From assembly GCF_003334815.1 (NCBI RefSeq), contig NZ_QOWO01000016.1: DNA of 64,000 nucleotides; one strand, given 5' to 3'. The translations under genes were made by a program, and so were the position numbers. The notes below the pieces were generated by a model. That model worked only from the letters and a program-made list of their open reading frames with translations. It ran no database searches and was not told the DNA's origin. The first letter of the stretch is position 1. Every line of letters starts with the position of its first letter. Positions 16,372-54,880 of the stretch are shown in pieces. Source of the stretch: Escherichia coli. GTDB lineage: Bacteria > Pseudomonadota > Gammaproteobacteria > Enterobacterales > Enterobacteriaceae.

Positions 16372-16815
16372 ATGAATAAAGTTAAAAGTGTTTACAGCCC
16401 GTCCGAAAATGCAATCTACAACGCAGCGCTATATGAAAGTTATATCAAGGAGGGGACATGGCCGCAGGATGGTATTGAAATCAGCGATGAGGATGCTGTC
16501 AGATTTAATGGGGGAAATAAGCCAACAGGAAAAATGCTGGGAATGGTTTCAGGGACCCTTGCATGGGTTGATGAGCCGCCGCTTTCACCAGAACAGAAAA
16601 TATCAGATGCAGAAAACATGAAAGCCACATTTCGTGCAAAAGCTGACAGTGAAATATCCTGGCGTCAGGATGCTGTTGATGCTGGTATCGCAACTGATGA
16701 AGAAACTTCAACTCTCACCCAATGGAAGAAATACCGTGTGCTGCTGATGCGTGTTGATACTTCAACAGCACCCGATATTGAATGGCCTACGCCTCCGGCA
16801 GTCCAGGCCAGATGA
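16372..16815 (+). CDS. tail fibre assembly protein (orientation currently expressed)
   Basis: 147-aa ORF right after tail fibre; C-terminal WPTPP motif shared with the opposite-strand paralogue (WPGLP). Confidence 0.8.
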   Translation: MNKVKSVYSPSENAIYNAALYESYIKEGTWPQDGIEISDEDAVRFNGGNKPTGKMLGMVSGTLAWVDEPPLSPEQKISDAENMKATFRAKADSEISWRQDAVDAGIATDEETSTLTQWKKYRVLLMRVDTSTAPDIEWPTPPAVQAR

Positions 16816-17389
16816 CGTCCGGCGCTGTGCTGGTATCTGTTGCCGTCACCGCGTCAATGTAATCCAGCACGGCGTTAAGTCGGGTTGTTTCTGCCGGCGT
16901 CAACTTCCGTCCGGCCTGTAATTTCAACTGAATCAGACTGATGGAAGCCATTGCAGCATCAATCAGATACTGGCGCTGTGCTTCTGCCGCTTCTACTGCG
17001 GCGCTATGCTGTGCCTCAGTATCCGTCACCCATTTCTCACCATCCCATTTATCGTATGGCGTTAATGGGGCGATAGTGGTTGTATTATCAGGGTAATCAC
17101 CCGGAGCTGTGATTTCTTTGGCGTCTCCCGTTTCGGTGCTATAGACAATTTCACCACGATGGTCTGACACATATTCCCATGATTTTAAATCCATAGAACG
17201 GCAGATAGCATAACCCGCCTTATATGTGCCAGGTTCATCCAGACAGGAATATGCAGGGATACCGACACCAATGGCAAGATATTCATTTGAAGTAGAAATA
17301 TATTCCCGAGTTTTACCATCATAGTTATAGACGGTAATATTCCCCGCCTTCGTGGCAATAAGCTCGCTATTTAATACGGCGTTATCCAT
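16787..17389 (-). CDS. tail fibre assembly protein (alternative, inverted orientation)
   Basis: 200-aa ORF on opposite strand inside the invertible segment, convergent with the + strand assembly gene. Confidence 0.8.
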   Translation of the reverse strand: MDNAVLNSELIATKAGNITVYNYDGKTREYISTSNEYLAIGVGIPAYSCLDEPGTYKAGYAICRSMDLKSWEYVSDHRGEIVYSTETGDAKEITAPGDYPDNTTTIAPLTPYDKWDGEKWVTDTEAQHSAAVEAAEAQRQYLIDAAMASISLIQLKLQAGRKLTPAETTRLNAVLDYIDAVTATDTSTAPDVIWPGLPEA

Positions 17390-17870
17390 TATGCAGCCCT
17401 CACGATATAGTTAAATGCAATATTTCGTGGACGGGTTTCACTCCCGCCAGTATTACCGATACTCCCTCGTGAATGAAGTGTCGGTGATGGGATCAGACTC
17501 CCTCCTGTATTTGTGGCATCAAGTCCCCGTCCTTGTGTGTATGTCTTTTTGAAAATCGTAGCCAGTTCCCATTCATCTTTTGTGTCGTAACCATCATTGG
17601 CAACAACAATATGGCGGTGTTTTTCCAGCATCCCTGTCTGAATGCTCAATAAAACACGTCCTGCATCAATACCGCGCCCGTCATCCCAGCCACGAATAAA
17701 CTCACCACGTAAATCAGGCAATTTATTTGTCGGATAAGCCTTTGCCAGTTCCGGGTATTCTTCAGCAGAAAAAGCCGCACCGTTGCATTTCAGCCAGCCT
17801 GTTGGCGGTGTGGCTGAAGGCCATGGAACAGGCACACCAACAGGTAATGCAGAGCCTTCTCCCAAACCAA
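17389..17870 (-). CDS. alternative tail fibre variable C-terminal segment (promoterless; expressed after inversion)
   Basis: minus-strand ORF reading from the right crossover site; translation contains VGLGE at the junction matching LGLGE of the + strand fibre. Confidence 0.7.
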
Positions 17871-17876
17871 CGTTTA
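17856..17876 (-). repeat. gix/hix-like inversion crossover site (right)
   Basis: reverse complement carries TTGGTTTGGGAGAAG, identical to 15976..15990. Confidence 0.6.
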
Positions 17877-17936
17877 TGAAAATGCAGAAATAACGAGCAA
17901 ATGGCATCATTCCTGCTTTTGTCAGGGAGATCTACT

Positions 17937-18491
17937 ATGCTTATTGGCTATGTACGTGTGTCAACAAATGACCAGAACACAGATCTACAACGTAATGCGC
18001 TGAACTGTGCAGGATGCGAGCTGATTTTTGAAGACAAGATAAGCGGTACAAAGTCCGAAAGGCCGGGACTGAAAAAACTGCTCAGGACATTATCGGCAGG
18101 TGACACTCTGGTTGTCTGGAAGCTGGATCGGCTGGGGCGTAGTATGCGGCATCTGGTCATTCTGGTTGAGGAGTTGCGCGAACGTGGCGTTAATTTTCGC
18201 AGCCTGACGGATGCTATTGATACCAGCACACCGATGGGGCGTTTTTTCTTTCATGTGATGGGTGCCCTGGCTGAAATGGAACGAGAACTGATTGTTGAAC
18301 GAACAAAAGCTGGACTGGAAGCTGCTCGCGCACAGGGACGAATTGGGGGACGTCGTCCCAAACTTACACCAGAACAATGGGCGCAGGCCGGGCGATTAAT
18401 TGCATCAGGCGTTCCTCGCCAGAAGGTGGCGATCATCTATGATGTTGGTGTATCGACACTGTATAAGAAGTTTCCGGTCGGAGATAAATGA
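17937..18491 (+). CDS. DNA invertase, serine recombinase of Gin/Pin/Hin family
   Basis: 184 aa starting MLIGYVRVSTNDQ (catalytic Ser motif); GGGAG RBS; C-terminal HTH; adjacent to invertible segment. Confidence 0.9.
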   Translation: MLIGYVRVSTNDQNTDLQRNALNCAGCELIFEDKISGTKSERPGLKKLLRTLSAGDTLVVWKLDRLGRSMRHLVILVEELRERGVNFRSLTDAIDTSTPMGRFFFHVMGALAEMERELIVERTKAGLEAARAQGRIGGRRPKLTPEQWAQAGRLIASGVPRQKVAIIYDVGVSTLYKKFPVGDK

Positions 18492-18590
18492 AACCGCAGG
18501 CTCGTCGTATGCAAGAAAGTGCTGCGGCTGGCTGGTTAACTTCCGATAGTGAGAGTATTGAATGATTTCCAGTCGTTATCGATTTTACGT
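18489..18590 (+). repeat. direct repeat copy 1 (~100 bp) at left edge of cargo region
   Basis: TGAAACCGCAGGCTCGTCGTATGCAAGAAAGTGCTGCGGCTGGCTGG... recurs at 21775..21877 with a handful of mismatches. Confidence 0.7.
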
Positions 18591-18849
18591 ATTTTTTGCA
18601 TGAGATGATTTGAACGCCCTAGCACCAACCGTTCATGATTGCACGCCACTGTCTCTAGAACTGCTATGAGCATGAAGCCGCTGTTCAAACTAAGAATTTA
18701 TATGGCACTAACAGAAAAAATGTTACATATATGTTGAGCTTTAACGCAACATAGACATGTTCTATAGTTTGTGTCTCACCACCAGTTGAAAAAAAACGAA
18801 AATAGATTAACAATGTTCAGAAGAAACCTTCATAATAGAAGAGGTATAA

Positions 18850-19104
18850 ATGGGTAAGATTATTCGGTGGATGCTTTTTTTTGTCGGATTATTTTCCGTT
18901 GCATATTCAATATATAAATATCAACAATCTCCGCAGAGTTTATTTTACATAATCGGTGCTATAGGAACACTTTTATCTGCTACATGTGGTTTACTTGAGA
19001 TAAAAAGCAAGAAATCGAATGGCAGTATAACTGCTGGCGACAACTCAAATATCGTTGTCATTAATGGTTCAGAAAACACATCAAAAATAAAAAATAGAGG
19101 GTGA
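18850..19104 (+). CDS. small two-helix membrane protein (84 aa), unknown family - cassette 1 gene A
   Basis: ATG with AGAGG RBS ~7 nt upstream; two hydrophobic helices (res ~5-22, ~31-50) then polar tail containing GDNSNIVVINGSENT; hand-counted GC ~30-35%. Confidence 0.6.
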   Translation: MGKIIRWMLFFVGLFSVAYSIYKYQQSPQSLFYIIGAIGTLLSATCGLLEIKSKKSNGSITAGDNSNIVVINGSENTSKIKNRG

Positions 19105-19106
19105 TT

Positions 19107-20042
19107 ATGTTTGATAAAGAGGTTAACTTAGGAGACAACTCAAACGTAGTAAAAACAGAAGGGAATAACAACACAACAATAATAAATAATTTTGATGAGA
19201 AGTTTATAGGTCACGTTGTAAGATCCATGCTTTATGAAAGTATGCCTTCCTTTCAAGAAGAAGCTAGAAAAAAGATAATTGCGTCAACTGATGAATACAT
19301 TAGAGAGCTAATATCTGAGTTAGTAATTCAAAAAACAGATGCAGATACATTAAACCAAAAACTATCAACGCCTGACGTTCAATACTCTCTTTTTGAATCA
19401 GCTAAATGTTTTGCAAAAAATCCAGAAAGAACAGCAAAATCAACTCTGTTAAATTTAGTTGTAAAAAAAATAAATGAATTGGATGGAGATCATGAAGAGC
19501 TTTCCTCTATCGATCTGGCAATAAACGTCGCTACAAAACTTAGCGTAAAGCAAATAAGGTATATATCTTTAATATACTATATTAAAGATATTGTAAAAAT
19601 ATCACAAGATAGTGCCGGCGCTTATTGCATAATAGATCCTTCAAAAGATACAACAGAAGAAGTTGACGATTTCTTTTTATTCCCAAATGATATAAAAAGG
19701 AACAAGCAGGATGTTTATGATCTTTATATCGATCTATATAACAATCAAATGGATGTTGTATTTAAAGATGAAGAGATTGGCCCAGTTGATTATAGTATGC
19801 TTATAGCATTGGGTTGTATCATTCAACCTGCATTCCCTCAGCGAACATTTGTACAAAATGTAAAGAAAAGAACAGGATTAGATTTAAACGACAGCGAACA
19901 AAAATTAAAGCTATCGACATTCATTGAGAAAATAGAAAAAGCTATAGAGATAGATTCTGTCGATTATATAGTATTAACTACGGTTGGTAGACAAATAGCT
20001 AACGCCTATATATCAACAAGAATGAGATTAGTTAACTTATAA
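19107..20042 (+). CDS. 312-aa soluble protein of unknown family - cassette 1 gene B
   Basis: ATG at 19107 with AGAGGG 6 nt upstream, 2 nt after gene A stop (ORF track start 19101 is an upstream GTG); N-terminus contains GDNSNVVKTEGNNNT; hand-counted GC ~27%; followed by hairpin terminator. Confidence 0.65.
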   Translation: MFDKEVNLGDNSNVVKTEGNNNTTIINNFDEKFIGHVVRSMLYESMPSFQEEARKKIIASTDEYIRELISELVIQKTDADTLNQKLSTPDVQYSLFESAKCFAKNPERTAKSTLLNLVVKKINELDGDHEELSSIDLAINVATKLSVKQIRYISLIYYIKDIVKISQDSAGAYCIIDPSKDTTEEVDDFFLFPNDIKRNKQDVYDLYIDLYNNQMDVVFKDEEIGPVDYSMLIALGCIIQPAFPQRTFVQNVKKRTGLDLNDSEQKLKLSTFIEKIEKAIEIDSVDYIVLTTVGRQIANAYISTRMRLVNL

Positions 20043-20063
20043 ATATCTCATATTTCTTCATCC

Positions 20064-20099
20064 AAGGTGGTGGCTTCATCATCCACCGCCTTCTTTTCT
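20064..20099 (+). terminator. rho-independent terminator of cassette 1
   Basis: AAGGTGGTGG-CTTCATCAT-CCACCGCCTT hairpin followed by CTTTTCT. Confidence 0.55.
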
Positions 20100-20103
20100 G
20101 CTC

Positions 20104-20240
20104 TTAAGAGTAGTGAACAAACCACTCGTCAGCAAACTCCCAAGTATCTTTCAGAGTCTCCTGAACAAAAGCCTTAGCAGAATCCTTATCTGCGGTGTAC
20201 GTAACAGGAAAATCATCGCTATGGTAGCTTTGACGCTCAC
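20104..20240 (-). pseudogene. truncated dinI-like remnant (3' portion only)
   Basis: nucleotide similarity to the 3' end of the intact dinI-like gene at 21881..22129 (GTGAACAAACCACTCGTCAGCA.ACTCCCA.GTATCTTTCAGAG...); no N-terminal part or start codon. Confidence 0.6.
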
Positions 20241-20366
20241 CCCCATACCATAAAATATCAAGAGATTACGACTCATTTCCCCATGACTCTTCACCAACCA
20301 ACAGTTCTATCAACATAAGATGTAAACTCATAAACTAAGCAAGATAAAAAAATTAACAGAATTTTG

Positions 20367-20395
20367 TTGATTTCATGTCTGTGGAGTGTTAACTT
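20367..20395 (+). promoter_or_regulatory. candidate sigma70 promoter for the XRE/ImmA operon
   Basis: TTGATT-17 nt-TAACTT about 50 nt upstream of the XRE start. Confidence 0.3.
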
Positions 20396-20445
20396 AAAAT
20401 GAGACCTGAAGTACTGAAGGTCTTTGACACACTGGAGAAGCAACT

Positions 20446-20805
20446 ATGTTAACGCCGTTTGGTAAGACAGTAAGAAAAATGCGCATAGACTTGGGGCTTA
20501 CGCTTAAAAGCATGGCTGAGGCTATGGGCATGACCTCGTCTTATCTTTCAGCGATCGAAACTGGTAAAAGGGCGGTCACTAAGCCCGTGCTTGATAGCAT
20601 CATTAGCTATTTTAATGCGGATGAAAAACAAAAAGAAAAGCTTATCAGTGCAGCTCGTGACTCTCAGCAGTCAGTAGAGATCAGCTTGTCAGGTAAGAAT
20701 GGCCACGCTCGTGAAGTCGCAATTGCGTTCGCTCGTAGTTTTGATGAATTAAATGAAGAAGACTTCCGTAATTTACGACAGATTTTGAATCGAAAACAGC
20801 AGTAG
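20446..20805 (+). CDS. XRE-family helix-turn-helix transcriptional regulator
   Basis: 119 aa; N-terminal HTH region (LGLTLKSMAEAMGMTSSYLSAIETGKR) typical of XRE/Cro-C1 repressors. Confidence 0.8.
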   Translation: MLTPFGKTVRKMRIDLGLTLKSMAEAMGMTSSYLSAIETGKRAVTKPVLDSIISYFNADEKQKEKLISAARDSQQSVEISLSGKNGHAREVAIAFARSFDELNEEDFRNLRQILNRKQQ

Positions 20806-20813
20806 GAGGCGGC

Positions 20814-21335
20814 TTGAGCGGACAAGATTATCGTGTACCTCCGCAGAATCGTGAATCAATACGTTCTATCGTCACATCTCTGCGGAGCGCATTTGGTATT
20901 ACTGGGCTTAAATTCCCTGTAATGGAGGTAATTGAGTTCGCATTGCCTCAGTTGATCCCGGATTTTGAGTTCCACATTGGTGGCATGAAAGAAATGGGAG
21001 AAACGCATGGTCTTACGTACCCACAGGAACATTTATTGATTCTGCGCGAAGACATTTACGAAGGCGCTTTGAATGGGGTAGGGCGAGATAGGATGACTGC
21101 CGCGCATGAATTGGGTCATCTTCTTATGCACAGGAACATCGCATTTGCTCGTTCTGCCCCAGGGGTAAAAATCCGCCCTTTTGAGAGTAGTGAATGGCAA
21201 GCTAAATGTTTTAGTGGTGAGTTATTAGTGCCGGCTATGCATGTCAGTATTTTAAAAGGTATGACGGCTGAGGATGTTGCTAAGGCATGCGGAGTTTCAT
21301 TAGTGGCAGCGCGTTATCAGCTAGACAGAATGTAA
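20814..21335 (+). CDS. ImmA/IrrE-family zinc metallopeptidase
   Basis: 173 aa; TTG start 4 nt after TAGGAGG; HEXXH motif (AAHELGHLLMH); immediately downstream of XRE gene, the classic HTH-peptidase pair. Confidence 0.8.
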   Translation: MSGQDYRVPPQNRESIRSIVTSLRSAFGITGLKFPVMEVIEFALPQLIPDFEFHIGGMKEMGETHGLTYPQEHLLILREDIYEGALNGVGRDRMTAAHELGHLLMHRNIAFARSAPGVKIRPFESSEWQAKCFSGELLVPAMHVSILKGMTAEDVAKACGVSLVAARYQLDRM

Positions 21336-21338
21336 AAA

Positions 21339-21373
21339 CCCCTTGCTTGGCGCCAACCAGTGCAAGGGGCTTT
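21339..21373 (+). terminator. stem-loop after ImmA-like gene (putative terminator)
   Basis: CCCCTTGC ... GCAAGGGG inverted repeat with large loop, then CTTT. Confidence 0.4.
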
Positions 21374-21488
21374 AGGTGATGAATCCAAGAGGCATCACCA
21401 CCGTGAACAGCTTCGATAGACAGCCTGAAATTAACACCTTCAGGGAAGATGTTCAAGGGAAAAATCTCTCTTGGTAAGGAGGTGTTTT

Positions 21489-21593
21489 ATGAATGGGTTT
21501 GAAATCAATTGCTTCAAAAGCGGCGCCCAAAGGGTTCCGTTGGGTTTTCTGCCGTTACCGCAAGGTGCGTGGGAAATCAAAAAAAGTCCTTGA
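21489..21593 (+). CDS. small ORF (34 aa) with strong ribosome-binding site, unknown function
   Basis: AAGGAGG 6 nt upstream of ATG; translation MNGFEINCFKSGAQRVPLGFLPLPQGAWEIKKSP; terminator 60 nt downstream; not in ORF track (under 60 aa). Confidence 0.35.
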   Translation: MNGFEINCFKSGAQRVPLGFLPLPQGAWEIKKSP

Positions 21594-21654
21594 TGCTCAT
21601 GATTACGGGTACGAGGCGTGGGCATTTTTAGTGCGCTGCTAAGGGTTAGTATTT

Positions 21655-21680
21655 AAGGCACCTGCGGGTGCCTTTTTTGT
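21655..21680 (+). terminator. rho-independent terminator
   Basis: GGCACC-TGCG-GGTGCC hairpin followed by TTTTTT. Confidence 0.65.
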
Positions 21681-21774
21681 ATCCTCTGACCCGATTGGTG
21701 TCTTGCTGAGCCTGATAACTACCAATTTTTGTTATTACTATTCTACTATCGCTCAATCATGATTGGCGGGAGTT

Positions 21775-21877
21775 GAAACCGCAGGCACGTCGTATGCAAG
21801 AACGTGCTGCGGCTGGCTGGTGAACTTCCGATAGTGCGAGTATTGAATGATTTCCAGCCGTTACAGATTTTACGTGC
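21775..21877 (+). repeat. direct repeat copy 2 (~100 bp) at right edge of cargo region
   Basis: near-identical to 18489..18590. Confidence 0.7.
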
Positions 21878-21880
21878 TAA

Positions 21881-22129
21881 TTAGTGAACAAACCACTCGT
21901 CAGCAGACTCCCAGGTATCTTTCAGAGTTTCCTGAACAAAAGTTTTAGCTGAATCTTTATCGGCGGTGCGCGTAACAGAAAGGCCATCGTTGCTGGTGGC
22001 TTTTACGATCACCTCTACATCGTCATAACGCTTACTGATGCGTCGAGTTAATTCTTCCTTTAACGCATCCACAGCACCGTTTGGCATTTTAGTCATTTTC
22101 TCTTTAGCTATGCAGATCTCAATACGCAT
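21881..22129 (-). CDS. DinI-family protein (prophage-encoded)
   Basis: 82 aa [11 protein letters not shown]...[11 protein letters not shown], resembles DinI; two LexA boxes in its upstream region. Confidence 0.85.
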
Positions 22130-22144
22130 AAAAATCCCTCTACA

Positions 22145-22160
22145 CTGTGTTTGTATACAG
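22145..22160. promoter_or_regulatory. LexA (SOS) box 1 upstream of dinI-like gene
   Basis: CTGTGTTTGTATACAG fits CTGT-N8-ACAG. Confidence 0.6.
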
Positions 22161-22172
22161 TGTTATTTTTAA

Positions 22173-22188
22173 CTGTATAAATAAACAG
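22173..22188. promoter_or_regulatory. LexA (SOS) box 2 upstream of dinI-like gene
   Basis: CTGTATAAATAAACAG fits CTGT-N8-ACAG. Confidence 0.6.
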
Positions 22189-22213
22189 TGTCAATGGAAC
22201 AAAGATTGCTGCA

Positions 22214-22329: not shown

Positions 22330-22348
22330 AATTAAAGAGACAACAATT

Positions 22349-23935
22349 ATGACAAGCCTTTTGGCCGCAGAGGTAGCGAAAAGAAGAACCTTTGCAATTA
22401 TTTCTCACCCGGACGCCGGTAAAACTACCATCACCGAGAAGGTGCTGCTGTTCGGACAGGCCATTCAGACCGCCGGTACAGTAAAAGGCCGTGGCTCTAA
22501 CCAGCACGCTAAGTCGGACTGGATGGAGATGGAAAAGCAGCGTGGGATCTCCATTACCACGTCTGTGATGCAGTTTCCGTATCACGACTGCCTGGTTAAC
22601 CTGCTCGACACCCCGGGGCACGAAGACTTCTCGGAAGATACCTATCGTACCCTGACGGCGGTGGACTGCTGCCTGATGGTTATCGACGCTGCAAAAGGTG
22701 TTGAAGATCGTACCCGCAAGCTGATGGAAGTTACCCGTCTGCGCGACACGCCGATCCTCACCTTTATGAACAAACTTGACCGTGATATCCGCGACCCGAT
22801 GGAGCTGCTCGATGAAGTTGAGAACGAGCTGAAAATCGGCTGTGCACCGATCACCTGGCCGATTGGCTGCGGCAAGCTGTTTAAAGGCGTTTACCACCTT
22901 TATAAAGATGAAACCTATCTCTATCAGAGCGGTAAAGGCCACACCATTCAGGAAGTCCGCATTGTTAAAGGGCTGAATAACCCGGATCTCGACGCTGCGG
23001 TTGGTGAAGATCTGGCGCAGCAGCTGCGTGATGAACTGGAGCTGGTGAAAGGCGCGTCTAACGAGTTCGACAAAGAATTGTTCCTTGCGGGCGAAATCAC
23101 TCCGGTATTCTTCGGTACTGCGCTGGGTAACTTCGGCGTTGATCATATGCTGGATGGCCTGGTGGAGTGGGCACCTGCGCCGATGCCGCGTCAGACTGAT
23201 ACCCGTACTGTAGAAGCGAGCGAAGACAAATTTACCGGCTTCGTATTTAAAATTCAGGCCAACATGGACCCGAAACACCGTGACCGCGTGGCGTTTATGC
23301 GCGTGGTATCCGGTAAATATGAAAAAGGCATGAAGCTGCGCCAGGTGCGCACTGCGAAAGATGTGGTGATCTCCGACGCGCTGACCTTTATGGCGGGCGA
23401 CCGTTCGCACGTTGAAGAAGCGTATCCGGGCGATATCCTCGGCCTGCATAACCACGGCACTATTCAGATCGGCGACACCTTTACCCAGGGTGAGATGATG
23501 AAGTTCACTGGTATTCCGAACTTCGCGCCGGAACTGTTCCGTCGTATCCGCCTGAAAGATCCGCTGAAGCAAAAACAGCTGCTCAAAGGGCTGGTACAGC
23601 TTTCCGAAGAGGGCGCGGTGCAGGTGTTCCGTCCGATCTCCAACAACGACCTGATCGTTGGTGCAGTTGGTGTGCTGCAGTTTGATGTGGTGGTATCGCG
23701 CCTGAAGAGCGAATACAACGTTGAAGCAGTGTATGAGTCAGTCAACGTTGCCACTGCCCGCTGGGTAGAATGTGCGGACGCGAAGAAATTCGAAGAGTTC
23801 AAGCGTAAGAACGAAAGCCAACTGGCGCTTGATGGCGGCGATAACCTCGCTTACATCGCTACCAGCATGGTAAACCTGCGCCTGGCGCAGGAACGTTATC
23901 CGGACGTTCAGTTCCACCAGACCCGCGAGCATTAA
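22349..23935 (+). CDS. prfC: peptide chain release factor 3
   Basis: 528 aa from ATG 22349 ([27 protein letters not shown]...); GTPase motifs; ORF track start 22322 is an upstream in-frame ATG. Confidence 0.95.
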
Positions 23936-24327
23936 TTCTTGCCTCCAGGGCGCGGTAGCCGCTGCGCCCTGTCAATTTCCCTTCCTTATTAGCCGCTTAC
24001 GGAATGTTCTTAAAACATTCACTTTTGCTTATGTTTTAGCTGATATCCCGAGCGGTTTCAAAATTGTGATCTATATTTAACAAAGTAATGACATTTCTGA
24101 CGGCGTTAAATACCGTTCAATGCGTAGATATCAGTATCTAAAGCCGTCGATTGTCATTCTACCGATATTAATAACTGATTCAGAGGCTGTAATGGTCGTT
24201 ATTCATCACCCATCGCTTTTGTGATGGCGGCCATTGACTTCTGTAGAGGGTGAAGTCTCTCCCTATTCAGCAATGCAACCTCGTGTTGCCAGGCTCAAAT
24301 TATGAGCAAACATACAGGAATAAATCG

Positions 24328-24933
24328 ATGACTATGACAAGACTGAAGATTTCGAAAACTCTGCTGGCTGTAATGTTGACCTCTGCCGTCGCGACCGGCT
24401 CTGCCTACGCGGAAAACAACGCGCAGACTACCAATGAAAGCGCAGGGCAAAAAGTCGATAGCTCTATGAATAAAGTCGGTAATTTCATGGATGACAGCGC
24501 CATCACCGCGAAAGTGAAGGCGGCCCTGGTGGATCATGACAACATCAAGAGCACCGATATCTCTGTCAAAACCGATCAAAAAGTCGTGACCCTGAGCGGT
24601 TTCGTTGAAAGCCAGGCTCAGGCCGAAGAGGCAGTGAAAGTGGCCAAAGGCGTTGAAGGCGTGACCTCTGTCAGCGACAAACTGCACGTTCGCGACGCTA
24701 AAGAAGGCTCTGTGAAGGGCTACGCGGGTGACACCGCCACCACCAGTGAAATCAAAGCCAAACTGCTGGCGGACGATATCGTTCCTTCACGTAAAGTGAA
24801 AGTTGAAACCACCGATGGTGTGGTTCAGCTCTCCGGTACCGTAGATTCTCAGGCACAAAGTGACCGTGCTGAAAGTATCGCCAAAGCGGTAGATGGTGTG
24901 AAAAGCGTTAAAAATGATCTGAAAACTAAGTAA
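24328..24933 (+). CDS. osmY: osmotically inducible periplasmic protein OsmY
   Basis: 201 aa starting [28 protein letters not shown] (signal peptide), two BON-like halves. Confidence 0.95.
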
Positions 24934-41551: not shown

Positions 41552-41719
41552 ATGAGTTTTTTTGATGAGTTGAAAACCTCTCTGGAAGAGGCTGTCGAGA
41601 TTAAACAAGGTTTGAAAAAACCTGCACGGGTGACCCGCCACGAAATTGAGGATGCTAAGGCTGTTGTCGACCGGAAAAGGTGTTCACGCCGCATCCGGCA
41701 TTCGGTGCTCAATGCCTGA
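41552..41719 (+). CDS. small ORF (55 aa) with antitoxin-like N-terminus, runs into REP element; possibly truncated gene
   Basis: ATG with GAGG 6 nt upstream; MSFFDELKTSLEEAVEIKQGLKKPARVTRHEIEDAKAVVDR then frame continues into REP-derived sequence. Confidence 0.35.
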   Translation: MSFFDELKTSLEEAVEIKQGLKKPARVTRHEIEDAKAVVDRKRCSRRIRHSVLNA

Positions 41720-41825
41720 TGCGACGCTTACCGCGTCTTATCAGGCCTGGAGATTCACAACGTATTGAAATTTCTTGGTTTGTAGGCCGGATAAGGCGTT
41801 CACGCCGCATCCGGCATTTTACGCA
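41683..41825. repeat. REP elements between nadR and ettA
   Basis: two REP units. Confidence 0.85.
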
Positions 41826-46061: not shown

Positions 46062-46675
<614 letters not shown>

Positions 46676-54756: not shown

Positions 54757-54825
<69 letters not shown>

Positions 54826-54847
54826 CGCGTACAGGAAACACAGAAAA

Positions 54848-54880
54848 AAGCCCGCACCTGACAGTGCGGGCTTTTTTTTT
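54848..54880 (+). terminator. thr attenuator (rho-independent terminator)
   Basis: AAGCCCGCAC-CTGACA-GTGCGGGCTTTTTTTTT. Confidence 0.9.

Follow-up and report, generated by a model that had tools for sequence, protein, structure and literature searches.

The right end of a prophage in Escherichia coli assembly GCF_003334815.1 (contig NZ_QOWO01000016.1) raises the question of how two gene cassettes came to lie between two copies of the same non-coding segment, together with a truncated second copy of the gene that closes the locus. We examined a 64-kb stretch of this contig, hereafter the window, of which positions 1 to ~22360 constitute the right two-thirds of the prophage; the slot that concerns us is the final 4 kb of that prophage. 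It opens with pin, a gene for a Pin/Gin-family serine DNA invertase, and closes with an intact dinI-like gene next to the attachment site (att), a gene annotated as DinI-like in all related loci. Between these anchors lie a ~100-nt repeat (rep100, copies A and B), a non-coding flank of copy A (ext), two cassettes, and a dinI remnant (dinI'), the coordinates of which are collected in Table 1. The homologous loci and records with which the window was compared carry L-numbers (L001, L002 and so on). The answer that we favour, and hold to be quite probable, is that coliphages have at their right end a slot with shared anchors in which cargo is swapped by homologous recombination, and that two events account for the arrangement in the window.

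When the window is compared with itself, as the first-pass annotation had suggested, both duplications are recovered. The segment that begins with the invertase stop codon (TGA, 18489-18491) recurs before the intact dinI with 93% identity over 102 nt and no gaps (18489-18590 versus 21774-21875), and the repeat core has only these two copies within the window. In addition, the 3' end of the intact dinI (21881-22129) is matched by dinI' with 87% identity over 108 nt (20111-20218 versus 21882-21989), a match that can be extended to ~132 nt (to ~20240) at 85%. Within the stretches compared, blastn gave E-values of 8e-39 (repeat) and ~2e-36 (dinI fragment), low enough to exclude chance. Since dinI' has no start codon and is preceded by an in-frame stop, it is a promoterless 3' remnant. 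The content of the interval also agrees with the first description of it: cassette 1, the dinI fragment at 20104..20240, and then cassette 2 with its XRE/ImmA pair and small open reading frame (ORF).

The two halves of the slot each have a near-perfect counterpart elsewhere. From 17857 to 20110, the window differs at 3 of 2254 positions from L001, a representative of four E. coli genomes with the order pin-rep-ext-cassette 1-dinI-prfC. From 20111 to ~22360, it differs at 5 of ~2250 positions from L002, a lambdoid, non-invertase prophage at prfC in strain 510016 with the order RT_UG17/SLATT-dinI'-cassette 2-rep-dinI (RT, reverse transcriptase). The dinI' sequence is identical to the L002 remnant from 20111 on, with the exception of one mismatch at 20113. 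The switch point is TGAACAAACCACTCGTCAGCA, a stretch of ~21 bases shared by the intact dinI of L001 and the dinI' of L002. Identity to L002 stays near-perfect to ~22360 and is followed by ~2.5% divergence in prfC; since this divergence holds for prfC beyond ~22367, only phage DNA was exchanged. The right block, from dinI' to the attachment-site arm, is thus from a lambdoid phage of a different morphotype, and the combined arrangement of the window was found in none of the complete E. coli genomes.

A prophage end with direct repeats only a few kb from each other is the sort of place where mis-assembly typically happens, and one could suppose that the second copy arose in this way or, recently, through tandem duplication of the rep-dinI unit in situ. 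We consider this effectively refuted. Divergences of 7% in rep and 13% in dinI are too large for recent duplicates; independent complete genomes provide a near-perfect match to each half; and the dinI'-cassette 2-repeat block is present in three other records at 98.8-99.8% identity (L002, L133 and L015). This block also bears out the earlier proposal that cassette 2 arrived together with a dinI 3' end. Moreover, L133 and L015 contain the series rep-dinI'-cassette 2-rep with the same 1771-nt spacing, which indicates that the duplication of the rep and dinI 3' unit is older than the recent crossover. A single illegitimate join of two phages, both with a rep-dinI unit, offers the best explanation of the duplication.

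The preferred account, in which cargo is exchanged through shared anchors, would then run as follows. The slot would correspond to the b region of phage lambda, between the tail-fibre/invertase module and dinI-att, with pin, rep100, an optional ext, and dinI with its LexA-controlled promoter as the conserved parts. Either side of rep100 would be occupied by self-contained cassettes that bring along their own promoter, genes, and terminator, and homologous recombination between co-resident or superinfecting phages would swap them, because the anchors are common to many otherwise different phages. In the older event, probably an illegitimate one, cassette 2 would have been placed between a truncated and a complete rep-dinI unit, giving rep+dinI' ... 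rep+dinI. The recent event would be a homologous crossover within the ~21 identical bases at the dinI 3' end, by which the body of a contractile-tailed pin phage (rep-ext-cassette 1-dinI) was joined to the right end of a prfC-integrating lambdoid phage (dinI'-cassette 2-rep-dinI-att arm). The recombination was probably of the relaxed kind mediated by phage Rad52-like recombinases. Lambda takes up prophage DNA by homologous recombination across diverged sequence, with a requirement of ~30 bp for Red-beta, and experiments have established relaxed recombination among temperate phages and prophages, with "HR traces" where mosaic blocks meet (De Paepe et al. 2014, PMC3945230). The first-pass annotation had both cassettes entering by recombination within the conserved flank and dinI sequences. 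This holds for the join between the two halves, which lies inside dinI 3' sequence, whereas the cassettes probably first entered through illegitimate joins where transcription units begin or end.

The prediction that the interval is a recombination hotspot for accessory genes is supported by both empty and differently filled slots. Empty versions, in which pin, a single copy of rep, and dinI are contiguous, occur in 12 of 5,426 complete E. coli genomes. On the right side of pin-rep(-ext) we observed cassette 1, Avs2, Septu PtuAB, a GIY-YIG protein, or, immediately adjacent, the attachment site; on the left side of rep we observed DUF4145 with an SDH protease and a truncation of pin, cdtABC with cif, NleG7/EspS, and RT_UG17/SLATT. 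At least 10 different cargos were seen in this one position, which is bordered by pin and rep100 (plus ext in some cases) to the left and by dinI/att or int to the right, in the E. coli genomes as well as in more than 120 viral contigs. Within 3.5 kb of rep100 there were 253 ORF clusters, many of them spurious. Known anti-phage systems in the slot were recognised by PADLOC as Avs2 (E = 0), PtuA (9e-185) with PtuB, and RT_UG17 (1.5e-158), and PD-T7-1 was found nearby (2e-68). The ea59 and ea31 genes of lambda likewise match PADLOC PtuA/PDC-M01 (Septu-like; ~1e-185 and ~1e-113). Hotspots at which homologous recombination reshuffles the accessory or defence genes of phages are a known phenomenon; for the slot described here, for its non-coding anchors, and for cassette 1, the sources searched appear to contain no earlier description.

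The anchor that recurs most widely is rep100 itself. A search with copy B gave 5,159 places in 3,147 of the 5,426 genomes (58%), almost always unannotated and sometimes labelled as a "capsid protein" pseudogene. A more distant search gave 199 phage records with rep100, including lambda, HK97, phi80, phage 21, HK629, mEp460, cdtI, and many Stx phages; in lambda (NC_001416) rep and ext are at 24162-24340, between ea47 and ea31. From 120 viral contigs fetched via a 20-nt core sequence, plus annotated loci, we obtained 84 distinct copies. The left edge of these is always the hairpin base, regardless of what comes before it (the pin stop, tail-fibre or cargo genes, or the cdtC stop), and all of the at least 10 classes of left flank end there. 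On the right there are ~8 unrelated flank classes, 7 of which start after ...GATTTTAC; dinI follows directly in ~61% of the sampled copies, and otherwise an integrase, other cargo, or ext. The G+C-rich stem of the hairpin is maintained by compensatory changes in 5 of 6 pairs (23 cells), a value that none of 500 shuffles reached. On the minus strand the hairpin is followed by UUUUU in many lambdoid copies and by UUUCA in both window copies, and the plus strand has no U-run. We read rep100 as a boundary module, composed of a terminator-like hairpin and a core, where the rightward late operon would converge with the leftward, SOS-induced dinI (or int) unit.

The two copies in the window are in different states. 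Copy B folds with -31 kcal/mol, better than shuffles (z = -2.64), and the stop codon of the intact dinI follows 5 nt on; judged from its sequence, copy B is predicted to form the 3' untranslated region (UTR) and the terminator-like end of the dinI transcript. Copy A has a weakened hairpin with a minus-strand fold of -17 kcal/mol (z = +0.29), deviates from the consensus of the family in columns with at least 90% conservation, lacks a minus-strand promoter upstream, and looks like a decaying orphan.

These properties are also compatible with the idea that rep100, alone or together with ext, serves primarily as a functional RNA, either an independent small RNA (sRNA) or one derived from the 3' UTR of the SOS-induced dinI transcript, and that its duplication is incidental. 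A precedent is DinR, an sRNA from the 3' UTR of the Klebsiella chromosomal dinI gene that depends on a Klebsiella-specific stretch (PMC10907235). In line with such a role, rep100 comes directly after the dinI stop and ends in a covarying hairpin followed by U's, and the dinI promoter contains two LexA-box matches (CTGT-N8-ACAG; 22145-22160 and 22173-22188, read from the sequence against the established consensus), which places copy B in the 3' end of a LexA-controlled dinI mRNA. The predicted layout is that of a stem-loop, an A/U-rich linker, a second stem-loop, and a terminator. The 65-nt core is nearly invariant across 48 distinct copies while the hairpin varies, the sharp edges are kept in all ~8 right-hand contexts, including those without dinI, and it is copy B rather than the orphan copy A, with its substitutions at conserved positions, that folds better than expected. 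Other results argue against an RNA function. The GGCUGG/CCAGCC helix predicted in the core shows no compensatory change among the copies, and Rfam, in both gathering and E-value modes on the window and related loci, has no family for rep100 or ext. For CssrB (RF02799; gathering threshold 76 bits) copy B reached 24.8 bits over model positions 145-180 only (36 of 180), on the opposite strand, and no full match was found in related loci. A literature search with the core sequence, in both orientations and as DNA or RNA, gave no match, and the sequence is absent from the Pas sRNA paper and its supplement. A species-wide scan placed the exact core only in Escherichia, apart from chance matches or contaminant-like tiny contigs, and the conservation measure carries an ascertainment bias. 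We regard a primary RNA function as unlikely, albeit one that would be compatible with the recombination account. The first-pass annotation had set a recombination scar against a conserved functional element as explanations of the repeat, and each applies in part: the duplication is a scar, whereas the element itself is conserved and functional-looking, given its covarying hairpin, its nearly invariant core, and its presence in 58% of E. coli genomes and in lambda.

Several further observations concern rep100. The Rfam matches to CssrB (3' hairpin only) and STnc130 (terminator only) are weak and were dismissed. PGAP labels part of the element as an N-terminally truncated "capsid protein" pseudogene (L127 4082-4168, L130 2519-2605, and other E. 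coli), which looks like a propagated mis-annotation; this frame was rejected as coding, since it contains stops in many copies including copy A (GGTTAA) and its substitutions have no 3-nt periodicity. A near-Chi octamer in the core, GCTGGTGA, has a variable position among copies and is never an exact Chi site, and inspection of core and ext by eye revealed nothing convincing in the way of IHF-like or sigma-70-like motifs. L056, at first sight a second slot with two copies, is in fact a double prophage end rearranged by insertion sequence IS1. The exact core is also found on low-coverage contigs of 262-401 nt in Alkalicoccobacillus, Lysobacter, and Chryseobacterium assemblies (L152, L157, and L158), most likely as E. 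coli or coliphage contamination. Finally, the sequence to the left of rep100 in HK97 (L022 3600-3625), ...gagtttcgggagataaaTGA, resembles the last pin codons, ...gtttccggtcggagataaaTGA, and the sequence to the left of copy B (21750-21776), ...ggcgggagtTGA, shows a more degenerate resemblance to the pin end. This resemblance suggests that invertase-less lambdoid phages descend from a pin-rep junction.

The second anchor of non-coding nature, ext, adjoins the repeat whenever cargo is to its right. It is 75-84% identical to lambda 24257-24340 in the b region and, within the same range, to L008, L013, L015, L045, L051, L059, L101, L114, L121, L133, and L162. It is not part of cassette 1 and continues the flank in the lineage of copy A. 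Directly past ext (18675-18700, compared with L162, lambda, and L165), three cargos and the Providencia form of cassette 1 start in a loosely similar manner (GGAGCGGATGTTAAAC / GAAGCCGCTGTTCAAAC / AAGCCACAGTGCAAAC), a likeness that could be due to chance or to a further short junction motif. The lambda record contains an unexplained misc_recomb feature at 24389^24390, ~50 nt to the right of ext. As far as could be found, the rep100/ext element has so far apparently remained unnamed.

Unrelated cargo joins the anchors at the same few nucleotides: the right end of rep (...GATTTTAC), the end of ext (...CTGCTATG), and the dinI stop codon. Together with the serine recombinase gene immediately upstream, and with the AAACC motif at the left end of rep, which resembles Din-family half-sites, this could point to site-specific entry of cassettes, either integron-like or by Pin at quasi-sites, with rep100, ext, and the dinI stop as attachment sites. 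We judge this mechanism very improbable. Neither cassette is flanked by inverted or direct repeats, and they lack attC-like structures or an integrase, the only attI/attC-type match in Rfam having E = 9.5. Cassette 1 occurs with identical ends in the P2 gpA-gpQ hotspot, in P4-like elements, and in an int/AlpA island, unrelated contexts that all lack pin and rep100 and have no integron integrase, and the rep-dinI junctions are no different in lambdoid phages devoid of an invertase. The one event that can be dated lies in a homologous stretch, and the junctions coincide with edges of functional units (stop codons and terminators), as purifying selection would leave them.

Exchange by homologous recombination, the account we prefer, has difficulties of its own. 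With only ~21 nt, the identical crossover stretch does not exceed what RecA or Red usually need as a minimum, and the surrounding ~130 nt are 85% identical. The direction of the event is not provable; L001-type loci could also derive from the window type by a deletion between dinI' and dinI. The sharp boundaries common to unrelated cargo are unlike random illegitimate insertion, and may be a sign of a more specific mechanism or of strong selection for intact units. As for the boundary module, a terminator scan flags neither rep100 hairpin of the window, and the U-run is short in both (UUUCA). The conservation of the core (diversity π of 0.07, compared with 0.24 for the hairpin and 0.16 for third positions of dinI) is a suggestive but confounded comparison because the loci were collected through an exact 20-mer, and it may reflect recent spread and homogenisation rather than function.

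Turning to the cargo, cassette 1 is a self-contained unit of two genes, with promoter-like sites at 18741-18836 and a terminator hairpin at 20064-20092 that is followed by a T-run. Its portability is apparent from a P2-like prophage of Providencia (L165 5566-7002), which is 86% identical over 1440 nt with sharp ends; this copy sits between the portal gene gpQ and gpA, the defence hotspot of P2. The same pair of genes, for proteins of 84 and 311 aa, is present in P4-like satellite remnants and in an int/AlpA island, and is rare in E. coli (4 of 5,426 genomes). Cassette 1 had no PADLOC, Pfam-A, or PDB sequence match; by guilt by association with the P2 gpA-gpQ hotspot and P4-like elements, it is a good candidate for a defence system. 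A GDNSN(I/V)V...N..NT motif (18850-19104 and 19107-19200) is common to the 84-aa protein, at its C-terminus (ITAGDNSNIVVINGSENTS), and the 311-aa protein, at its N-terminus (NLGDNSNVVKTEGNNNTT), and G9, D10, N13, V15, T17, G19, and N22 of the motif are invariant across the family alignment of the 311-aa protein; this may be an interaction or beta-augmentation motif.

Cassette 2, of which the portable core spans 20276-21677, encodes an XRE-type helix-turn-helix (HTH) repressor followed by an M78-type metallopeptidase, the pairing found in CapH/CapP; PADLOC also matches RmrA here. The core is 89% identical in another prophage, where it lies beside the integrase (L132). No effector operon, of CBASS (cyclic-oligonucleotide-based anti-phage signalling system) or any other type, adjoins the cassette: only the 49-aa ORF comes after it, and the dinI pseudogene is upstream. 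It does not, therefore, belong to a CapH/CapP-regulated defence operon in the window, and we consider it an orphan CapH/CapP-like module and a candidate for testing. In L002 (2101-4777) there is a UG17 RT (RT_UG17, 1.5e-158) with a SLATT partner, split by IS1A; the RT/SLATT pair is divergent from the CapH/CapP-like pair, with only the dinI remnant in between, and the two may together have been a regulated defence operon in the past. In silico, the cassettes have the own promoter and terminator expected of morons, cassette 1 with both inside its portable unit (18675-20108) and cassette 2 with its terminator at 21655-21674.

Two further proposals follow from the cargo and the anchors, namely (a) that cassette 1 is an undescribed anti-phage system that moves as an intact unit, promoter and terminator included, between hotspots of unrelated elements (this slot, P2 gpA-gpQ, P4-like satellites, and the int/AlpA island), and (b) that rep100, with or without ext, is a widespread undescribed element that combines a bidirectional boundary/terminator or an SOS-linked RNA with portable homology. 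We give about even chances to at least one of them being true in the strong sense, that is, with demonstrable defence activity or with an RNA or regulatory function beyond termination.

Table 1. Features of the slot at the right end of the prophage (window coordinates).
Feature	Position	Strand	Evidence and remarks
pin (Pin/Gin-family serine DNA invertase)	17937..18491	+	ORF; annotated pinE in L001 and L003; 99.8% identity to L001; conserved left anchor
Repeat copy A (rep100)	18489..18590	.	Hairpin 18494-18527 plus 63-nt core; degenerate copy
ext, conserved non-coding ~85-nt flank	18591..18674	.	Adjoins the repeat whenever cargo is to its right
Cassette 1	18675..20108	+	Promoter-like region, two genes, terminator hairpin; self-contained mobile unit
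84-aa two-helix membrane ORF	18850-19104	+	Cassette 1
311-aa PF28206/LPO_1073-Vpar_1526 ORF	19107-20042	+	NCBIfam NF045477, 3e-24
dinI' (3' remnant of a second dinI allele)	20104..20240	-	Crossover interval 20111-20131 at its 3' end
Cassette 2	20241..21773	+	Portable core 20276-21677; between dinI' and copy B
XRE/CapH-like HTH	20446-20805	+	PADLOC capH 3.6e-10
ImmA/IrrE (CapP-like, HEXXH) metallopeptidase	20814-21335	+	PADLOC capP 4.9e-11; HELGH in translation
49-aa basic ORF	21493-21642	+	PHROG 33859, 1.5e-26
Intrinsic terminator	21655-21674	.	Terminator scan; end of cassette 2
Repeat copy B (rep100)	21774..21875	.	Intact hairpin 21779-21812 plus conserved core; 100% identity to L002
Intact dinI-like gene, 82 aa	21881..22129	-	NCBIfam PRK10597 3e-20; PHROG 189 4e-31; conserved right anchor
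SOS-type dinI promoter	22145..22194	-	-35 at 22194-22189, -10 at 22170-22165 (promoter scan; sigma-70-like)
attR, right prophage/host junction	22330..22370	.	Inside prfC 5' end; prfC = 22349-23935

The prophage around the slot has an HK97-type head, a contractile tail with baseplate, and an invertible tail-fibre segment that accompanies the Pin-family invertase. In L001 the tail-fibre C-terminal/assembly segment (16753-17875) is reversed (it aligns with L001 2245-1123 at 91%) between collinear flanks, direct evidence of a switch of the Pin-invertible segment between these near-identical prophages. At the right junction the phage supplies a substitute promoter region and the first prfC codons (PrfC N-terminus MTSLLAAEV...), as in other lysogens at prfC. 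The 5' end of prfC is a known integration site of cdtI and Stx phages, both of which carry the same segment. The remainder of the window is chromosomal, from prfC through the thr operon, and contains ordinary E. coli features that are unrelated to the slot: naRNA4/REP-type clusters (Rfam RF02564) at 27292-27571, 41669-41747, and 46065-46142, as well as the Thr leader (54761-54880) and ES036.

Altogether, the locus shows the trading of accessory genes among temperate coliphages at nucleotide resolution. A small set of anchors (pin, the 100-nt module, and dinI) lets contractile-tailed and lambdoid phages exchange their right ends, and one slot houses Avs2, Septu, and RT defence as well as toxins and type III effectors. 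With the anchors defined, new cargo can be sought in a simple way across thousands of E. coli genomes. The locus nominates cassettes 1 and 2 as candidates for testing and draws attention to a conserved element that lacks annotation and occurs even in phage lambda.

The slot and its contents can be compared with several known systems. Cassette 2 resembles CapH/CapP (and also ImmR/ImmA and DdrO/IrrE) in that an XRE HTH protein is followed by an ImmA/IrrE peptidase with HEXXH, at PADLOC values of ~1e-10; in contrast to those systems, it is not adjacent to a CBASS or other effector operon, the sole co-transcribed candidate is the 49-aa basic ORF, and the UG17 RT-SLATT pair that is divergently upstream in L002 is separated from it by the dinI remnant. 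The b region of lambda, which is non-essential and extends from the side tail-fibre genes to att, and the morons of lambdoid phages, accessory genes with their own promoter and terminator (a concept of Hendrix and Juhala), provide a positional parallel. Lambda has rep and ext at 24162-24340 between ea47 and the Septu-like ea31/ea59 pair, whereas the phage of the window has an invertible tail-fibre segment with pin, and dinI is its last gene before att. As in DinR, rep100 lies in the 3' end of a LexA-controlled dinI transcript with a terminator-like hairpin at its end, and DinR serves only as an analogy. The 85-93% similarity in dinI and rep that borders blocks of at least 99.8% identity recalls the mosaics that relaxed homologous recombination produces (De Paepe et al. 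2014, PMC3945230), but the identical crossover stretch is very short here (~21 nt). With respect to the P2 gpA-gpQ and old/tin hotspots and those of P4-like satellites (Rousset et al. 2022, PMC9122126), the present phages differ in being lambdoid or of the pin type with an HK97 head and a contractile tail, the slot is located between the tail-fibre/invertase module and dinI-att rather than by cos, virulence cargo (cdtABC, cif, and nleG7) is also present, and the anchors include a non-coding module instead of core genes only. What these hotspots have in common with the slot is a fixed position, conserved phage borders, and many arrangements that combine known defence systems with unknown genes, and cassette 1 is found both here and in the gpA-gpQ and P4-like elements.

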